Positions 7,746 to 41,662 are shown, counted from the first letter of the stretch. The stretch is 64,000 nt of DNA from Bacteroidales bacterium (GCA_021108035.1 JAIORQ010000100.1:20210-84209), one strand, 5' to 3'. The notes: generated by a model not told the origin, from the sequence alone. Translations and numbers: made by a program.

Positions 7746-8892
7746 TTTTAAATAAGTTTTTTGTATCTGATATCAATAATTCATTATTTGTGCATTCTTT
7801 TGCAAAATTAAATGCTTTTTCTGACATAATTTTATATTCTTCTTGTTTCATATCAATACATTTTTGAATTGTATCAATAAACTTACTCTTTTCAGATAAA
7901 GCAATATCCCAACCGACATTTTTGTCCTCAAGATCTCGCCATGGTGTTTGGTCGCTTATAATTACCGGACAACCGGCAGAGAAGCTTTCTAATATTGAAT
8001 GCCCGAAATTTTCACCTTTAGAAGGCATAAAAGCAAAATGATATTTTAAAAAAGTTTTATGTATCATGCTGCTTTCAATGCTGTTTTTGTAGTTAACTTT
8101 TATGTTTTTCGGAAGAAGATTAATTATTTTATTACATTCTTTCCAGTATTTATTATTATAAATTGAACCGAATAAATCATATTCAATTTTTCCTGAAAAA
8201 TCAGTTGATGCTAATATTTGTAGTGCATATAAAGTGTTTTTTTCGGCAGAAATTCGTGCAATGCTTACTAATTTTAACTCTCCTTTTTGTTTAATAATTT
8301 GTTTTGGTTCTTTTGTTAAGGTTATTCTCGGGAAATTGGGTACAACATTAATATTTGCATTATTCGATAAAATTGTTTTTATATCAAGTGCTTCTTTTTT
8401 ATCAGTTGCTTGAAAATTTACGTCTTTATATAAACCAAAAAGTTTTGCAATAAATATAAATATTTTCTTTTTAAATTGTTTCGCACTAAATGCTTGTTTT
8501 GACAGCATTCCTCTGGGAGCAACAATAATTTTTTTTCCGGTTTTTTTTATTAATCTTAACGGAAGAATAGAAAAAAAAAATGAATAAATTCCGTTTATGT
8601 ATGCAATGTCGCAGTCAATATTATTTATAAGGTCTATAAGGTTTTTTTTGTTTTTTTTTGTTTCGGAAAAATAATAAACCGTTGCTTTAGATTCAAAATT
8701 AAGCCATTTATCTTTTGTTATTTCTGGATATGGCTCTTTTTCCAAATAATCTCTGTCAGATGTAACAATATAAAAATCAAAATATTCATGAAGTGCGTCA
8801 ATCATATTGGCAACAGATCTGATAGGTCCGCCGGCTTTATACCCAGGTAAAAACCAATCAATAAATACCAATATTTTCTTTTTTTTTGACAT
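7738..8892 (-). CDS. Glycosyltransferase family 4
   Basis: PGYKAGGPIRSV, APRGML, ARISAEKN, PSKGENFGHSILES..AGCPVIISDQTPW. Confidence 0.92.
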   Translation of the reverse strand: MSKKKKILVFIDWFLPGYKAGGPIRSVANMIDALHEYFDFYIVTSDRDYLEKEPYPEITKDKWLNFESKATVYYFSETKKNKKNLIDLINNIDCDIAYINGIYSFFFSILPLRLIKKTGKKIIVAPRGMLSKQAFSAKQFKKKIFIFIAKLFGLYKDVNFQATDKKEALDIKTILSNNANINVVPNFPRITLTKEPKQIIKQKGELKLVSIARISAEKNTLYALQILASTDFSGKIEYDLFGSIYNNKYWKECNKIINLLPKNIKVNYKNSIESSMIHKTFLKYHFAFMPSKGENFGHSILESFSAGCPVIISDQTPWRDLEDKNVGWDIALSEKSKFIDTIQKCIDMKQEEYKIMSEKAFNFAKECTNNELLISDTKNLFKNE

Positions 8893-31131: not shown

Positions 31132-32088
31132 TCATTTAGAACTGAACTTTGTTCGAACTCCCTCTAACATGGTGTTGGTCAGTTTTGTAATATTATATTT
31201 GGTTTCTAAGCCCCAATCTTTTTGAGCTTGAGAATCATCAATACTTTGCGGCCAAGATTCTGCAATCGGTTGTCTGAAATCCGGATTATAAGTAATTTTA
31301 AAATCAGGAAGATGCTTTTTTATTTCAGCAGCAATTCCTTTTGGTGCAAAACTAATTCCGCCGACATTATAACTTGAGCGAATTTTGATGTTTTCTTTCG
31401 GTGCTTCCATAAGTTTAATTGTAGCATTTACGGCGTCTTCCATAAACATCATCGGTAAAGCAGTATCTTCTTTTAAGAAACATTCGTAATTACCGTTTTT
31501 AATTGCTTCATAAAAAATTTCAACAGCATAATCAGTTGTTCCTCCACCGGCTTCAGTTTTATAACTTATCAAACCGGGATACCTTATACTTCTTACATCA
31601 ACATCATATTGATTATAAAAATATTCGCACCATCTTTCTCCGGCAAGCTTACTGATACCGTAAACCGTAGAAGGCTCTGTAATAGTAAGTTGGGAGGTGT
31701 TAACACGAGGCGTTGTGGGACCGAAAACAGCAATTGAACTTGGCCAAAAAACCTTTTTAATATCTTCTACAACTTTGGCTAAATCCAAAATATTCAACAA
31801 ACTTTGCATGTTAATATGCCAAGCTTGCAGTGGAAGTTTTTCTGCATTACCGGATAATACAGCAGCCAAATGATAGATTTGTGTGATTTTATGACGTATA
31901 ACGTAATGTATCAAACGTTTATCGTCCATAACGTCTAATATTGCAGAAGGGCCGGCTTTTTTAATATCTTTCGGGATGTCTTTAATGTCTGTTGCATAAA
32001 CATTTTCGTTTCCGTGAATTGCTCTCATAGCTGTAACAAGCTCGGAACCAATTTGTCCGGCAGCACCAATAATCAAAATTCTTTCCAT
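31132..32088 (-). CDS. NAD-dependent epimerase/SDR, probable L-threonine 3-dehydrogenase
   Basis: GAAGQIG, PSSIAVFG, YGISK, SIRYPGLIS, GGGTTDYAVEIF, SWPQSIDDS.A..DWG: signature of SDR-type threonine dehydrogenases. Confidence 0.88.
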   Translation of the reverse strand: MERILIIGAAGQIGSELVTAMRAIHGNENVYATDIKDIPKDIKKAGPSAILDVMDDKRLIHYVIRHKITQIYHLAAVLSGNAEKLPLQAWHINMQSLLNILDLAKVVEDIKKVFWPSSIAVFGPTTPRVNTSQLTITEPSTVYGISKLAGERWCEYFYNQYDVDVRSIRYPGLISYKTEAGGGTTDYAVEIFYEAIKNGNYECFLKEDTALPMMFMEDAVNATIKLMEAPKENIKIRSSYNVGGISFAPKGIAAEIKKHLPDFKITYNPDFRQPIAESWPQSIDDSQAQKDWGLETKYNITKLTNTMLEGVRTKFSSK

Positions 32089-32135: not shown

Positions 32136-32370
32136 AAATAAAAGAAAAATTGTCGTTTAAAAAAACATTACTATTTTTATGTTATTAATGTGTAAATATT
32201 TACTTATGAAACACCCATGAGAACAAAATTTCACACAAAGCAGCATGAATAACAAACCATGTTAATTACTTGCATATAGTTGCAGGTGTTCCTATGTGCA
32301 GAGCAAAACAAATAAAAAATGAAAAGCACCCAATTTGCACAATATTAATTAATTGTAAAAATTTAGACAC

Positions 32371-33018
32371 ATGAAAAGAATTATCTTTATTCAAACTTTA
32401 ATTTTTTTGTTTTTCTTTTCAAACAGTCTTTTTTCTCAACAATATTATAAATTCACTTGTGATATTACAGTTAAAGAGAAAATATCGGAAAAACAATTCT
32501 CACTGACAAAAGGTAAAATTGAATATAACAAATATTCTGACCGAACAGTTCTTAAATTTACTTTTCCCGTAAAAGAAACATGGATTCTCAGCAAAGACAG
32601 CCTTACAAGATTTATTAACGGCAAGCTTGATTATCAAATTCAAACAGCACCTTTGCATAAATATTCTGTTTTCAGGTTATTTCTGAAAGGAACACTGAAA
32701 AATTACGGTTTAAAAGAATCGTTATACAAAATAATTGAAATTGAAGAAAAAGACAACAATTTGATTTATACAACATGGAAGCCTGAAAGAGAAATTGAAA
32801 AATTTGATTTCGGGAAGGTCGTTCTTGCTCAAAAGGATAATAAACTTAACGGAATAGCTTTTTATGATAAAACAGAAAAACTTATAAGTAAACAAATTTT
32901 TAAAGATTATGTGAATTTAAAAGGGCTGTATTTTCCGTTTAAAATTATTCAGATTACATATACACAAAACGGTGAAGAATATAAGATTACCGAATTTAAG
33001 AATATTGTTTTGAAATAA
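32371..33018 (+). CDS. Exported hypothetical protein, possibly LolA-like fold
   Basis: Signal peptide; beta-rich pattern ending in YFPFKIIQITY...ITEFKNIVL, as seen in LolA-like proteins. Fold not verified. Confidence 0.6.
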   Translation: MKRIIFIQTLIFLFFFSNSLFSQQYYKFTCDITVKEKISEKQFSLTKGKIEYNKYSDRTVLKFTFPVKETWILSKDSLTRFINGKLDYQIQTAPLHKYSVFRLFLKGTLKNYGLKESLYKIIEIEEKDNNLIYTTWKPEREIEKFDFGKVVLAQKDNKLNGIAFYDKTEKLISKQIFKDYVNLKGLYFPFKIIQITYTQNGEEYKITEFKNIVLK

Positions 33019-33032
33019 CAGATAGGTTTAAT

Positions 33033-33437
33033 ATGAAAAGAAATTTTATCATACTCTTGCTGTCGGTTTTAGCATTACAAAATCCGATTAAAGCATACGG
33101 ACAAATAAGTGAGGATATAAACAATTTCGAAAAAATTAAAATTTACAAACCTGAAAAAAAGAGAGATTATTCTTATGCAAAAGAACAATTTAAAACTTTT
33201 CAGGTATTGTTTTCGGGGATGTTTTTGTTTTATAAAAATTTTATATCATCGCAAGATAACAGCTCTTGTCCGTTCCGGATTTCCTGTTCGGAATATTTTA
33301 TAAAATCGGTGCAAAAAAAGGGAGTAATACTCGGTTTTTTAAACGGAATAGACAGATATAAAAGATGTAACGGTTTCAGCAATAACAGATACGAAAGGGA
33401 TTATGAAACCGGTAAACTAATTGACCCTGTTGATTAA
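33033..33437 (+). CDS. YidD-like (haemolytic domain) protein with an N-terminal signal/extension
   Basis: FYKNFISSQD..SCPFRISCSEY...KGVILG.L.GIDR..RCN carries the three-Cys YidD signature. Confidence 0.85.
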   Translation: MKRNFIILLLSVLALQNPIKAYGQISEDINNFEKIKIYKPEKKRDYSYAKEQFKTFQVLFSGMFLFYKNFISSQDNSSCPFRISCSEYFIKSVQKKGVILGFLNGIDRYKRCNGFSNNRYERDYETGKLIDPVD

Positions 33438-33565
33438 TTTACATTGAATAATGAACGACAGAGTCCTCACCGCAGGGAATTAAAAAAGGTAGTAAATGTT
33501 GTGGTGCATTTAAAGAATGTAATCAGCACATTTAATAATAAAATTCAAGGAAAGAAAATATTGAT

Positions 33566-33573
33566 TAAATTTG
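33566..33573 (+). promoter_or_regulatory. -7 box (TAAATTTG) of the KilA-N gene
   Basis: TAnnTTTG ending 20 bp before the ATG at 33593. Confidence 0.6.
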
Positions 33574-33592
33574 TCGTATATAAATTATTATT

Positions 33593-34459
33593 ATGAGTAA
33601 AACGACAAAAATACAAGTTGAAGACAAAATAATTTCAATTATAAAGAAAGACCGCCAAGATTACATTTGTTTGACTGATATGGTTCGTGAAGAAGAAGGA
33701 AATGACCATATCCGAAATTGGATGAGAAATAGGAATACTGTTGAATTTCTCGGACTTTGGGAAACTTTACATAACCCAAATTTTAAACCTGTCGAATTCG
33801 ACACCTTTAGAAAACAAGCCGGATTAAACAATTTCAATTTGACACCTAAAAAGTGGATTGAAACTACAAATGCAATTGGTATAACATCTAAATCAGGCAG
33901 ATACGGCGGAACCTATGCACATAAAGATTTAGCCTTTGAATTCGGTGCTTGGATTAGTCCAATGTTCAAACTTCTTCTGATAAAGGAATTTCAAAGGTTA
34001 AAAGAGATTGAAACCAATAAATACAATCTTGAATGGAATGTTAAACGAATATTAAGCAAAACAAATTACCAGATTCATACAGATGCTATTAAGGAGCATA
34101 TTATTCCAAAAAAGAGTTATAGTAAAAGTGTTGAATGGATTGTTTATGCAGAAGAAGCAGACTTGTTGAATGTTGCAATGTATGAATGTACCGCAAAAGA
34201 CTGGAGGGAAGCAAATTCTGAAAACGCAAAAAAAGGGTTGAATATTAGAGATTTTTCAAGTATTAATGAATTAGTAGTGTTATCAAACCTTGAAAATCTA
34301 AATTCCGTTATGATTGCTGAAAACATTAGTAAAGTTGAAAGATTTAAACAACTGAAAAAGGTAGCTGTTTCTCAATTAAACACTTTGGATAATAAGGACT
34401 TTATGAAATCTTTAAAAAGGCTTAATGAAAGAACTTATATTGAAGAAAAGACAAATTAA
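33593..34459 (+). CDS. KilA-N domain DNA-binding protein
   Basis: DYICLTDM, IRNWMRNRNTVEFLGLWE..HNPNFK, SKSGRYGGTYAHKDLAFEFGAWISP.FKL.LIKEFQRLK. Confidence 0.92.
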   Translation: MSKTTKIQVEDKIISIIKKDRQDYICLTDMVREEEGNDHIRNWMRNRNTVEFLGLWETLHNPNFKPVEFDTFRKQAGLNNFNLTPKKWIETTNAIGITSKSGRYGGTYAHKDLAFEFGAWISPMFKLLLIKEFQRLKEIETNKYNLEWNVKRILSKTNYQIHTDAIKEHIIPKKSYSKSVEWIVYAEEADLLNVAMYECTAKDWREANSENAKKGLNIRDFSSINELVVLSNLENLNSVMIAENISKVERFKQLKKVAVSQLNTLDNKDFMKSLKRLNERTYIEEKTN

Positions 34460-34461
34460 AA

Positions 34462-35286
34462 ATGAAGATAAAATATATTTTGTTCTCTGTATTTTTGCTT
34501 TTACAAATAAATTTGTCGGCTCAAAACCTGTTTAATAAAGAAAACTCATTAATCTTTACAAAATATCTTTTTGAAATACATCAATATGAATTTGCAACAA
34601 CAGAACTTGAGAAACTTGTTTTTTTTAATAAATCGGACGATTCACTAAAATACTTATTATTAAAATCATACAGACTTTCGGGACAATATGATAAAGGAAT
34701 TAACAGAGCAAAGAAGTTATATAACAATTTTGAAATTATGCCGATGGTTTCTGCTCCGGAATATACTAAATTATTAATTTCGGCAGATAAATATTCTGAT
34801 GCTCGGGAATTTCTTTCTGTTAATCATAACTTAAAGTATGATGATAATATAAAATTTTCATTACAGATAAATTTACTTGAAAAAAAGTGGCATGCTGCAA
34901 ACGATATTTATCAAGAGAATAAGGAAACGGTACAAGGAATTGAGGCTTATGAATCAATAATATTTCAAGGTATGAATTTAAAGCGAAAAAGTCCTTTTCT
35001 CGCCGGGACTCTTTCAACTTTTGTTCCGGGAATGGGGAAAGTATATACAAGCTATTGGAAAGACGGGTTGCTGGCTTTTATGAGTATAAGTATCAGTTCA
35101 TGGCAATCATATAACGGTTTTCAAACCGACGGAGCTGATTCTGCATACGGGTGGATTTTCGGAACAGTTGCAACAATACTTTATTTTAGTAATATTTATG
35201 GGTCACAAAAATCGGCAAAACGTTATAATTCCGATAATGAAAAAAAAATTATTCATAAGATTAAGTATCATTTGGATACTTTTTAG
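34462..35286 (+). CDS. Exported TPR-like protein with a C-terminal membrane (DUF5683/TM2-like) segment
   Basis: Signal peptide, helical repeats, KSPFLAGTLSTFVPGMGKVY motif, then two hydrophobic helices. Confidence 0.75.
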   Translation: MKIKYILFSVFLLLQINLSAQNLFNKENSLIFTKYLFEIHQYEFATTELEKLVFFNKSDDSLKYLLLKSYRLSGQYDKGINRAKKLYNNFEIMPMVSAPEYTKLLISADKYSDAREFLSVNHNLKYDDNIKFSLQINLLEKKWHAANDIYQENKETVQGIEAYESIIFQGMNLKRKSPFLAGTLSTFVPGMGKVYTSYWKDGLLAFMSISISSWQSYNGFQTDGADSAYGWIFGTVATILYFSNIYGSQKSAKRYNSDNEKKIIHKIKYHLDTF

Positions 35287-36097
35287 TTGGTTTGGATTTT
35301 CTTATTCTCAAAACATTTCAGCAACATTTGAATTAGCTGAAAACAGCTGTAATGCAGGAAATTTTAAAGAAGCAATCTATTATTATCAAAGAATACTTTG
35401 TTTTGGAACTGATGCAGAAAAAACTAAATCTTATATAAACTCGGCAAATTGTTATTTTGAATTATCAGATTATGATAAAGCTTATGAATTATATGAATTA
35501 GCTTATTATACAGTTCAAAATGACAGTCTGAAAAAAGAATTGCTTTTTAAAAAAGCAATAACTCTGTTAAATGAAAAAAGATACAAATTGGCATTGCTTG
35601 AAATACTTGAATTTGACAGTCAGAACGATAAATACTTCACTCTAAAAAAAGAAATTTATCTCGGAATTACTTATTTCCTTTTGGATGAATTTGAAAAATC
35701 AGAAAAACATATTATGAATTATGTGAATCTTTCACATATTGAAAACAGCGAAGAATATGAACAACTTTTTATTGAAAATTCCAAGATTAAAAGAAGTAAA
35801 ATTAAAACAGCCGTTATTTTGAGCAGTATAATACCCGGATTAGGCCAAATGTATGCAGGTGATTTTAAAAATGCAGTAAATTCCGCCTTACTTAATGCAT
35901 CACTTTTAGGAATTGCAATATTAATCGGATATAATTACGGCATAATTGATGCTGTTGTTACAATTTTTCCGTGGTTGTTAAGATATTACTCAGGAGGTAT
36001 GATAAAGGTTGAAAATATTGCTCAAAGGAAAATAGCCGGAGAAAAGCAAAGAATTTACAATGAATTGTTACAATTAATAAAAGAAACCGACAATTAA
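35237..36097 (+). CDS. TPR protein with a C-terminal membrane (DUF5683/TM2-like) segment
   Basis: ATG at 35237 (MKKKLFIRL, signal peptide) preferred over 35168; TPR pattern; AVILSSIIPGLGQMY motif, then hydrophobic helices. Confidence 0.75.
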   Translation: MKKKLFIRLSIIWILFSWFGFSYSQNISATFELAENSCNAGNFKEAIYYYQRILCFGTDAEKTKSYINSANCYFELSDYDKAYELYELAYYTVQNDSLKKELLFKKAITLLNEKRYKLALLEILEFDSQNDKYFTLKKEIYLGITYFLLDEFEKSEKHIMNYVNLSHIENSEEYEQLFIENSKIKRSKIKTAVILSSIIPGLGQMYAGDFKNAVNSALLNASLLGIAILIGYNYGIIDAVVTIFPWLLRYYSGGMIKVENIAQRKIAGEKQRIYNELLQLIKETDN

Positions 36098-36230
36098 GGC
36101 TCTGATATATAATGAGATAAAAAATGAAGACAGAAATAAAAAATAAGATTGACTGTTTTTTTAATCAAGTGCATTGCCCCTTTTTCATAAAACTTTTTAT
36201 AATACAAAAGTAAAAAAACTTTTTTTATTG

Positions 36231-36238
36231 TATATTTG
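36231..36238 (+). promoter_or_regulatory. -7 box (TATATTTG)
   Basis: TAnnTTTG 26 bp before the ATG at 36264; supports that start over 36174. Confidence 0.55.
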
Positions 36239-36263
36239 TATATTAACTCTTAAAACTGACGAA

Positions 36264-36797
36264 ATGAAAAAATTAGTACTATTACCGGTATTTATTTTAA
36301 TTTATTCTTTTTCATTTTCATCTGTAGATTTATTTGAAATTGATACAGAATTGATTGAAAAACAGTTTGAAATCCTGAATATTTTTGAAGAATTGTATGT
36401 TAGCGGAGATGAAAGTTTAATTGATATTGAAAATCAGTCAGAGATTCTCACCGGCAGTATAAAACTTATAGAAGGATTTGAGCTTGTAAAAAGGTCAAAT
36501 GATATGATATCGGGAATACCGATGGTTGTGCACAGTTTACTTTTGGGGCCTGTAGGTATTGTATTAGAAAATTTGAAACCAAATTTAAAAACATGGGCAA
36601 TTGTTGCAATTATAGCGGGAGGAGTTATTATTGCTTCCGGTATTGTTTTTATAATAATTGTTGCATCTACCAGAAGTGCCGGAGAGTCATGCGGAAATGC
36701 TTTAGGTGACAGTTGCGGGAATGCTATAGGCAGCGGTTGCAGCAGCTCTTCTTCGGGATGCAGTTCGGGACTGTCGTATTTGATGAGCGTTTTTTAA
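36264..36797 (+). CDS. Hypothetical membrane protein with a Cys/Gly/Ser-rich C-terminal tail
   Basis: Signal peptide, acidic domain, GIP...LLGPVGIV segment, TM helix, then ESCGNALGDSCGNAIGSGCSSSSSGCSSG. Confidence 0.7.
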   Translation: MKKLVLLPVFILIYSFSFSSVDLFEIDTELIEKQFEILNIFEELYVSGDESLIDIENQSEILTGSIKLIEGFELVKRSNDMISGIPMVVHSLLLGPVGIVLENLKPNLKTWAIVAIIAGGVIIASGIVFIIIVASTRSAGESCGNALGDSCGNAIGSGCSSSSSGCSSGLSYLMSVF

Positions 36798-36823: not shown

Positions 36824-37279
36824 ATGAAAAGGAAGATTTTATTAGTATTTGCAGCATTCTTGGCTGTTGCATTTTTTTACGGACAAGCAAATGCGCAAGC
36901 AGGAAAAATGATTGGTTTATGGAAAACAATTGATGATGAAACCGGAGAAGCTAAATCGCATGTTAAGATTTACAAAGCAAAAACCGGATTTTATTATGGC
37001 AAAGTTATTAAGTTGTTGAAAGAACCCCAAGATAAAAAATGTGAAGAATGTAAAGGAGCTTTAAAAAACAGACCAATTGTCGGAATGGTTATCTTAATTA
37101 AAATGAAAGTTGACGGAGATAAATTAGCAGACGGAAAGATTTTAGATCCCGGAAACGGAAAATTCTATCATTGCACAATGGAGTTAGATTCTAAAAATAA
37201 AGACAAATTAAAATTAAGAGGCTCTCTTGACAGTTGGGGGCTTGCAGGCAGAACACAATATTGGTACCGTGTGAAATAA
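36824..37279 (+). CDS. DUF2147 domain protein
   Basis: ATG 36824 gives a signal peptide; GLWKTIDDETG..KS.V.IY, C..C.G..K..PI.GM.I, GKILDP.NGK.Y, L.LRG...GRTQYW.R. Confidence 0.9.
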   Translation: MKRKILLVFAAFLAVAFFYGQANAQAGKMIGLWKTIDDETGEAKSHVKIYKAKTGFYYGKVIKLLKEPQDKKCEECKGALKNRPIVGMVILIKMKVDGDKLADGKILDPGNGKFYHCTMELDSKNKDKLKLRGSLDSWGLAGRTQYWYRVK

Positions 37280-40528: not shown

Positions 40529-41662
40529 TTACGAAAATAATTTATTTTTTAGTTCTTCAAATACCAAATCACAAATATACATATTCGTATAATTTTGCTT
40601 GGTTTTGTTTTCATAGAAGTTCTCCCGTTTAAAACGGTCTAAAGAATTAAAATCTAAAGAAATAACTTTTGGAGAACTTTTCATTTGAATATAAGGGATA
40701 ATCCCTTTCATGACATCAGGAAACCAGACATCTAAACCACAAATAAGATATTCAAATAATTTATTCGGAGCATTGTATTCATAGTTTTTCGTATTCCCTT
40801 TATATAGAATAATGCCTACATGATACTTTGATAATACCAAAGGTAATTTTTCGTATTCTATTCCTGTATTTACAAAATTGATATAAGATGATTGTAGTTT
40901 TTGTAAATATTGATCTGTGTCTTGGTGCATATTATATGTAAATATATCAAATAATACCTTTCCGTTTTGTAATATTACCCAATCTGAAAATTCTTTAATA
41001 TAAGTATCATTAAGAGAAAGCGCACCCACATAAACACATTTTAAAGGAGTATTTGATTTTTTCCTATCAATCAAATCTATTTTTTGCAACCAAGATTTGG
41101 GAGGATAATTTGGTAATTCTTTTAAAATTTCTTTATCAACTGAAGGGTTATCTTTAATAAAAAAGTTAAGTCTGTCTTTATTGGTATGAGATACCCAAAC
41201 TGCTTTGTTGTAAATATACGTTTGTTCCAATTTATGAAAAAGACATTCCAGCTTCATTGACCGGTTTTGATATTCATCAGGAGTAGTGTATTCGTGATAA
41301 TGGACAAAAATTGCAGTTTTTCGGTTAAATATTTTTGTGTATAAAAAAACAGGAAAAGAAGATAATGATTCGTAATATAAAATTTTATTTGGACAAAAAA
41401 AGATCAATCTCAATAAAACCGAGACTTGAAAAAAGAAATATTTTAAAAGCCGAAATATTATGTTTTCATTATTTTTGGCCGGTGCTGTTCTGTATATTTT
41501 TACTCTTTTATTAATAAAGACATTTCGTTTTTTTGTATTATGAGTTGAAAAAGCGGATATTTTAGTTTCTGCATTAGATTCTCCGGCAAGATAATTTATC
41601 ATATTAGTTGCCGGAGGATAATATTCTAAAGGCAAGAAGTGTAATATTGCTGTTTTTTTCAC
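40529..41662 (-). CDS. Glycosyltransferase (GT-B, GT4-like)
   Basis: YHEY, YVGALS, YEYNAPNKLFEYLICGL. Confidence 0.8.
   Translation of the reverse strand: MKKTAILHFLPLEYYPPATNMINYLAGESNAETKISAFSTHNTKKRNVFINKRVKIYRTAPAKNNENIIFRLLKYFFFQVSVLLRLIFFCPNKILYYESLSSFPVFLYTKIFNRKTAIFVHYHEYTTPDEYQNRSMKLECLFHKLEQTYIYNKAVWVSHTNKDRLNFFIKDNPSVDKEILKELPNYPPKSWLQKIDLIDRKKSNTPLKCVYVGALSLNDTYIKEFSDWVILQNGKVLFDIFTYNMHQDTDQYLQKLQSSYINFVNTGIEYEKLPLVLSKYHVGIILYKGNTKNYEYNAPNKLFEYLICGLDVWFPDVMKGIIPYIQMKSSPKVISLDFNSLDRFKRENFYENKTKQNYTNMYICDLVFEELKNKLFS

Follow-up and report, generated by a model that had tools for sequence, protein, structure and literature searches.

A conserved Bacteroidota operon combining a putatively exported YidD paralogue, a predicted LolA-fold protein and a pair of tetratricopeptide repeat proteins

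We describe a five-gene operon in the genome of a Bacteroidales bacterium (GCA_021108035.1) that encodes a predicted exported paralogue of YidD, a protein modelled with a LolA-superfamily fold, two predicted tetratricopeptide repeat (TPR) proteins and a small membrane protein. Its distribution supports a dedicated, co-inherited envelope module that is widely conserved in the Bacteroidota. The operon lies in a 64,000-nucleotide stretch of DNA (JAIORQ010000100.1:20210-84209; G000:C3:20210-84209 in our numbering of genomes and contigs; G+C ~29%), hereafter the window, from whose first nucleotide positions are counted. We refer to the genes by the letters A to E; the usual Bacteroidota order is A-B-C-D-E, while the order in the window is B-C-[lodger]-D-E-A, so gene A is last in the window operon and first in most genomes. 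An original prediction, made from the window sequence alone, had placed five open reading frames (ORFs) in this interval and proposed that they form a dedicated envelope module, perhaps for membrane-protein insertion or secretion. All five ORFs are present at the positions given, although the inventory left out a further gene, which separates C from D at 33593-34459. The co-inheritance and export signals described below bear out the envelope module, with insertion or secretion as a tentative reading of its role.

Conservation was assessed in 80 one-per-species loci found by the pattern FYKxFISSQD, which is a signature of protein C, and in 20 further loci from a 300-species sample of the class that was searched with C and D profiles, the pairing of D with a YidD-like gene being counted by hand. 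The complete set A-B-C-D-E is present in 60 of the 80 species loci, and the others contain B-C-D-E (7), C-D-E (5), C-D (4) or other combinations (4). The 20 class-sample loci divide into 15 with A-B-C-D-E, two with B-C-D-E and three with C-D-E, with none in the C-D or other categories. Among the 80 species are members of the cultured genera Marivirga, Marinoscillum and Emticicia as well as metagenome-assembled genomes labelled Chitinophagales, Saprospiraceae, Sphingobacteriales and Bacteroidales. Marivirga tractuosa (locus L092) has all five genes, and Marinoscillum pacificum is another cultured carrier. Carriers of A-B-C-D-E span the Cytophagales, Chitinophagales, Bacteroidales, Saprospiraceae and Sphingobacteriales, with C proteins 35–60% identical to that of the window. 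The D profile detected 68 of the 300 class genomes, and in 60 of them a YidD-like gene lies no more than 3 kb away on the same strand; in most of the other eight, both genes are present on different, often short, contigs. In the same sample, scores with the C profile fell into three classes, namely a long subfamily with high scores (≥100 bits in ~29 genomes), a long class of intermediate score, and canonical YidD at ~50 bits. Moreover, C, D and E are adjacent in eight of 40 relatives (G014, G016, G028, G029, G033, G034, G036 and G037), and metagenome contigs with close C homologues show the same neighbours, including a B homologue that overlaps the start of C. The operon is present in roughly one fifth of the sampled Bacteroidia species, and the genes thus co-occur in other genomes, as the proposal of a module had implied.

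The genes that flank the operon vary between loci, as they would around a mobile island, and this is what one would expect if the five genes had no joint function and were merely neighbours by descent or through hitch-hiking. However, their order is kept at 35–60% protein identity across several orders, reading frames overlap, and, as described below, dispersed copies of these genes were lost together from three sites in one genome that has the operon in their place. A lack of joint function is hardly tenable on these grounds, and the co-occurrence data bring it close to refuted. Defence or phage origin of the module was also considered and rejected, as A–E have no PADLOC or PHROG matches. Homologue searches by word index returned few proteins, with generic names only.

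Two copies of the module, or two C-D(-E) cores, sometimes occur in one genome, in some cases back to back (L103, L151, L093, G028, G033, G134, G147 and G309). The closest relative of the window locus, at 93–95% protein identity (L079, which is the G014 contig JAUVIG010000390.1), is publicly labelled 'Chlorobiota bacterium', and other carriers are labelled Bifidobacteriaceae or Rickettsiales. Because all of these carry a Bacteroidota-type operon, they are probably mislabelled bins.

The genus of the window's genome provides a natural experiment, as its members carry the operon, a dispersed set of the same genes, or none. In the sister genomes G001, G002 and G005, C, D and E occur singly at three separate housekeeping sites. 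Dispersed C lies in the arrangement ftsK-lolA-receiver-[C]-amidohydrolase, with the canonical lolA two genes from C; D lies in rnhA-[D]-prs; and E is flanked by a PPDK-like gene on one side and a gene for an FKBP isomerase on the other. These neighbours of D and E (RNase H, prs, PPDK-like and FKBP genes) were set aside as housekeeping synteny. Genome G004 contains C at the dispersed site and an E homologue, with no clear D. All three dispersed sites are empty in the window's genome (gaps of 183, 160 and 469 bp; flanks 56–87% identical). The epimerase and DUF2147 genes on either side of the operon are adjacent, forming an empty site, in G002, G005 and G013, so the block must have come in as a unit. 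Furthermore, the window proteins are only 31–37% identical to the dispersed copies of G001, compared with 50–61% to those of G016, which belongs to another genus; this points to xenologous replacement of the dispersed set by the operon. Eight members of the genus, G003 and G013 among them, lack C, D and E, and a ninth, G010 (70% complete), has E only. That the genes are kept or missing together, in either of two genomic arrangements, is the strongest evidence for mutual dependence of the parts.

N-terminal signal-like sequences had been noted on all five proteins, and each does begin with a basic N-terminus ahead of a hydrophobic stretch. The residue immediately after this stretch is Gln in B, C, D and E, and family alignments show this Gln to be invariant for C and E and near-invariant for D. 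Such a Gln after the signal core conforms to the 'Q-rule' of Bacteroidetes signal peptidase I (PMC5837995, PMC10653852). Based on the signal sequences and the Q-rule Gln, we infer that all five products leave the cytoplasm.

Gene C (33033-33437, + strand) encodes a 134-amino-acid protein related to YidD. The YidD family is near-universal in bacteria and its molecular action is poorly defined; the domain was formerly called the 'haemolytic domain' in Pfam. C scores 50.4 bits against Pfam YidD PF01809 (cut-off 27) and 56.4 bits against the NCBIfam equivalog TIGR00278 (cut-off 40). An alignment with 20 relatives divides it into a signal peptide, an invariant Gln24 and, after a variable linker of ~35 amino acids, a complete YidD domain. 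Residues C79, C85 and C112, in a C...CS...RC arrangement, are invariant in 21–22 sequences that include the genome's canonical YidD, and Q24 and the SSQD of the FYKxFISSQD signature are invariant in the C subfamily. By these sequence criteria C is a genuine YidD-family member behind a predicted signal peptide. The profile scores, the three Cys and the neighbouring genes also agree with the original prediction, in which C was described as YidD-like, with three Cys and a signal or extension, in a non-canonical gene context. The subfamily is tight: at E ≤ 1e-30, a search of 1.84 billion representative proteins yielded 155 of its clusters (50% identity), and in a fusion ('Rosetta stone') search with C the best 150 of 9,536 matches were all single-domain proteins of 99–187 amino acids.

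The same prediction had suggested looking for a separate canonical yidD and yidC, and both were found. The canonical YidD (98 amino acids, 86.8 bits) is encoded on contig C57 and YidC on contig C6, the canonical yidD likewise not lying beside yidC. With a canonical YidD already encoded on another contig, C represents an additional copy. A second YidC-type 60KD_IMP domain (91 bits) is encoded at G000:C39:24243-24800 (− strand) inside a 1243-amino-acid open frame, which is unusually long for the YidC family.

As reported in PMC8082313, YidD of E. coli is a 'membrane protein insertion efficiency factor', a cytoplasmic protein that neighbours the nascent chains of membrane proteins where Sec/YidC inserts them (Yu et al. 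2011, J Bacteriol 193:5242). C might be a YidD helper of the cytoplasmic face that is held by an uncleaved N-terminal anchor and aids the Sec/YidC insertion of D, E and A. It passes the YidD thresholds and keeps the hydrophobic stretch before the YK motif, and the proteins encoded with it all need membrane insertion or export. Nevertheless, we consider this explanation very unlikely, since C has the basic N-terminus, hydrophobic core and invariant Gln at the predicted cleavage site that are found in exported Bacteroidetes proteins (PMC5837995), an anchor with its N-terminus inside would also put the domain outside, and the genome already has a canonical YidD. Because its signal peptide, length, linker and gene context all differ from those of canonical YidD, C is instead predicted to act on the opposite side of the membrane.

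Genes D (34462-35286) and E (35237-36097), both on the + strand, have reading frames that overlap by 50 bp, as had been reported, and encode proteins of 274 and 286 amino acids (E counted from its ATG), each with a predicted signal sequence and three short hydrophobic helices in the C-terminal part. The two proteins align end to end (hhalign 99.8%, E 5.5e-30, 254 columns). E matches TPR_2 (31.7 bits; cut-off 27); the window D has no match to a TPR profile, and other members of its family give weak TPR and DUF5683 matches. The AlphaFold2 model of E (pLDDT, predicted local distance difference test, 88) is all-helical, with ~4 TPR repeats and helices at residues 188-198, 202-206, 210-234 and 236-285. 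A Foldseek search with this model returned generic TPR proteins only (consensus TPR, LapB, MamA and PilF) and no structural match to the C-terminal helical part. These comparisons indicate that D and E are full-length paralogous TPR proteins, with ~4 predicted TPRs each.

At the first C-terminal helix, D and E have in common the motif S-x3-P-G-x-G-x2-Y, which is kept in both families. Family alignments identify S185, P189, G190, G192, Y195, Y241, N244, G247 and N256 as invariant in D, and S196, P200, G201 and G203 as invariant motif residues in E. The original prediction had read this shared element as a C-terminal membrane motif; the motif itself is invariant and stands, while the helices in which it lies are only weakly hydrophobic, so that its placement in the membrane is tentative. 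A Kyte-Doolittle scan detected no strong membrane segment in D. The strict pairing of the two genes, their overlapping frames and their full-length paralogy fit the putative D/E heteromer that the original prediction had suggested.

Gene A (36264-36797, + strand) encodes a small, predicted exported protein of 177 amino acids (from its ATG) with two membrane helices, and a TAnnTTTG-like motif, tatatttg, occurs ~25 bp upstream of it. In an alignment of 20 members the A family, of ~150 amino acids, is characterized by a signal peptide, a helical segment with (D/E)LF.(V/I)D, two membrane helices and, usually, PLGIP.F.WG; a hidden Markov model of the family scores the window ORF at E 7.7e-32. This fifth protein had been called Cys-rich, which is not a trait of the family: the Cys/Ser-rich tail of the window protein is not conserved in the alignment and is lineage-specific. 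Neither A nor D matches a Pfam or NCBIfam family at E ≤ 0.1. A TM2 domain (PF05154) was rejected for A, as ten A-family proteins had no match even at E ≤ 5, and one member of the D family gave a TM2 match at E 0.006. In four genomes of one family (L060, L065, L070 and L076) a gene for an MMPL/sterol-sensing-domain exporter (~750–760 amino acids) lies directly upstream of A. The pair is embedded there in conserved obg-PAP2-crcB surroundings, and the exporter gives a hint that the client may be a lipid.

Two further genes were considered as a sixth core member and excluded. One, dprA, occurs downstream of E as a lineage-specific neighbour. The other, F1, encodes a helical, exported protein of 289–369 amino acids; it is not counted as core because, across 100 loci, it follows E in only 17 of 51 close downstream genes and because it is encoded elsewhere in the window's genome. 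The latter homologue (G000:C16:47908-48777, − strand; E 2.7e-43) is located directly upstream of an apparent extracytoplasmic function (ECF) sigma factor gene and a gene encoding 427 amino acids.

Gene B (32371-33018, + strand), which adjoins C on the upstream side in most loci, encodes a predicted exported protein of 215 amino acids. No Pfam or NCBIfam model matches B at E ≤ 0.1, including the LolA/LolB models PF03548, PF16584 and PF17131, and a profile of the B family found chance matches only among PDB sequences. An AlphaFold2 model based on seven homologues (pLDDT 83.8; predicted template modelling score, pTM, 0.75) was compared with known structures using Foldseek, which retrieved the LolA-superfamily protein NE2245 (3buu; E 8.4e-11) and P. 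gingivalis LolA3 (9tp6; TMq 0.63–0.64). The Foldseek probability was 1.0 for 3buu, 9tp6, 3bk5, LolA and LolB, with template modelling (TM) scores of 0.4–0.64. According to this model, B has the LolA-superfamily half-barrel fold, an incomplete beta-barrel closed by helices, and its earlier description as 'LolA-like' is upheld at the level of the fold. The housekeeping LolA of the sister species G001 matches the LolA profile models, and a canonical lolA is also present elsewhere in the window's genome.

The Foldseek matches of B also include RseB and MucB, LolA-fold periplasmic sensors of mislocalised lipid or lipopolysaccharide. The module could therefore be a sensor of envelope stress or of lipid mislocalisation, with B in the role of RseB/MucB, and with D, E and A relaying the signal across the membrane. 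The dispersed C, found directly after a stand-alone receiver-domain gene, and the F1 homologue adjoining the ECF sigma factor gene would both suit such a role. We nonetheless regard a sensor as improbable to a high degree: no sigma, anti-sigma, kinase or DNA-binding gene is conserved in or beside the operon across ~100 loci, the RseB matches of B have TM scores of ~0.3 as opposed to ~0.6 for LolA-type matches, and the YidD domain has no known sensing role.

The explanation that we favour, and to which we would give somewhat less than an even chance, is that the module may be a periplasm-side machine that handles a hydrophobic client. This reading is drawn by analogy, because all parts carry export signals and because the only two parts whose relatives have a known function, YidD and the LolA fold, both deal with hydrophobic segments at membranes. 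In addition, C is independently linked to LolA-fold genes in both arrangements, B standing beside C in the operon and lolA two genes away in the dispersed form, and D and E resemble a coupled scaffold. In the proposed mechanism D and E would pair, as suggested by their translational coupling and constant co-occurrence. Their C-terminal helices, together with A, would lie in or on the inner membrane with the TPR domains facing the periplasm, and this platform would hold the exported YidD domain at the periplasmic membrane face. By analogy with cytoplasmic YidD, C might contact the client, either the acyl chains of a lipoprotein or lipid or a hydrophobic helix, and could hand it to, or take it from, the putative carrier B, which would shield it in the periplasm. 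A further-reaching version, possible but in our view rather less likely, is an envelope-biogenesis machine in which a periplasmic-side YidD on a D/E/A platform, together with a dedicated LolA-fold carrier, inserts or extracts helical anchors, lipoproteins or lipids, with no conserved ATPase in the operon.

Several observations weigh against such a client-handling machine. C-terminal helices 1 and 2 of D and E contain only ~15–17 uncharged residues of modest hydropathy, and Lys/Arg residues occur on both sides of all three helices, which is hard to reconcile with three simple passes through the inner membrane. At the sequence level no similarity of B to LolA, LolB or LolA3 could be detected, so its capacity to bind cargo is read from its fold. 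Among the conserved genes of the operon none is LolCDE-like, LolB-like or otherwise energy-providing, the link to the MMPL exporter is limited to one family, and the action of canonical YidD, from which the analogy is drawn, is itself poorly defined.

The short, modestly hydrophobic and Lys/Arg-flanked helices of D and E keep alive an alternative of self-assembly, in which these two proteins, and perhaps A, are the clients of B and C. Sec would export the C-terminal helices in full, B would keep them shielded in the periplasm, and C would place them, from the periplasmic side, in either the inner membrane (outer leaflet) or the outer membrane (inner leaflet). The real output of the module would be any partner that the TPR pair binds once it is anchored. 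Helices of this kind may escape stop-transfer, and members of the YidD family are membrane-active, as the former Pfam name implies. In the class sample C never occurs without a D/E-type partner, and B and A are dispensable, C-D-E or C-D standing alone in nine of the 80 loci. On the other hand, the dispersed form lacks B and has the housekeeping LolA only, and there is no known precedent for YidD-assisted insertion of helices from the periplasm. We judge a self-building module to be unlikely.

The operon occupies a block between an NAD-dependent epimerase gene (31132-32088), which is on the − strand and divergent from the module, and a DUF2147 gene (~36824-37279), and the interval between them contains six + strand ORFs. 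A leader or promoter element of ~165 nucleotides (32206-32370, + strand) abuts gene B and contains the inverted repeat TGCATATAG...CTATGTGCA. There are three copies of this leader in the genome (contig C3; contig C23, ~40560-40735; contig C25, ~7775-7949), each ending in ...TTTAGACAC-ATG before a gene for an exported protein, and the inverted repeat across copies reads TGCA(C/T)ATAG ... CTATGTGCA. The leader has no Rfam family match and could be a shared operator or 5' untranslated region element. In G005 the same leader precedes DUF2147 at the empty site, so the block landed between the leader and the DUF2147 ORF, leaving B behind the leader.

The sixth ORF (33593-34459, + strand), between C and D, is a lodger that lies outside the module. 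It encodes 288 amino acids, ends 2 bp before the ATG of D, and matches KilA-N PF04383 (82 bits; cut-off 23.8) and phrog_2657, annotated as a transcriptional regulator. Along its entire length (residues 1-276; E 1.5e-124) it also matches PDC-S22, a candidate defence family in PADLOC. The lodger is absent from the 93–95% identical G014 locus, in which ~95 bp separate C and D, and from all other loci examined; two paralogues, 52–54% identical, are encoded on contigs C22 and C31. In a distant relative (L090, 4764-5207) the same gap between C and D contains a 147-amino-acid gene that appears, from a reading of its sequence, to encode an IS200-type transposase. The KilA-N lodger and this transposase-like gene suggest that the gap has taken in a selfish gene at least twice.

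No paper that connects YidD to LolA-like or TPR genes emerged from a literature search, reports on Bacteroidota LolA paralogues (PMC11885536, PMC13103446) make no mention of YidD or TPR proteins, and the DUF5683 literature is unrelated to the module. Thus, there is apparently no described system of this composition, and the operon itself appears unstudied. It offers a defined system in which the binding partners and the action of a YidD domain can be tested. Envelope trafficking in the Bacteroidota is incompletely understood, LolB having been recognised only recently, LolA3 being an orphan and surface lipoprotein export being unresolved, and a missing route may lie here. If the envelope-biogenesis machine proposed above is correct, the operon would represent a Lol- and Sec-independent route and provide the first clear biochemical handle on the action of the YidD domain.

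Each component resembles a known family in part. DUF5683 (PF18935) is a Bacteroidetes family of uncharacterised role. Its first ~24 model positions match the S..IPG.GQ.Y segment of E in 15 of 17 family members, below threshold, and that of D in six of 15. The window E scores 15.2 bits against this model (cut-off 26.7; model positions 4-24 of 151) and the window D has no match, so both fall below the cut-off; the similarity involves the first helix alone, and DUF5683 proteins lack a TPR domain. RseB and MucB resemble B in fold, with the low TM scores given above, but are two-domain proteins, and the operon contains no sigma/anti-sigma partner. In the four genomes with an MMPL exporter gene, its proximity to a LolA-fold gene recalls aryl-polyene and flexirubin-type export sets. 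The exporter is, however, non-core and absent from the window, and no polyketide or lipid synthesis genes are present; YidD and TPR components are not known from those export systems.

Among Lol carriers of the Bacteroidota, LolA1/LolB1, the flexirubin-operon pair LolA2/LolB2 and the orphan LolA3 have been described (PMC11885536; PMC13103446; PDB 9tp6). B is similar to these in its predicted LolA-superfamily half-barrel and type I signal peptide, LolA3 being among its best matches, and, like LolA2/LolB2, it would be a LolA-fold paralogue dedicated to one operon. Its operon differs in having no LolB-like lipoprotein, no LolCDE and no biosynthetic genes of the kind found in the flexirubin locus. 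Finally, C retains the YK...C...(S/T)CS.Y...R.(R/K)C core of YidD (PF01809/TIGR00278) with its three Cys and the preceding hydrophobic stretch. Canonical YidD is a protein of ~70–100 amino acids that lacks an export signal and acts at the cytoplasmic face, whereas C has 134 amino acids, a predicted signal peptide, a conserved +1 Gln and the ~35-amino-acid linker; it contains SSQD instead of the SP motif and, in most members, RCN instead of RCHP. The canonical gene context is rnpA-yidD-yidC, while C is encoded between the LolA-fold and TPR genes, and its database label as ordinary YidD conceals the family.

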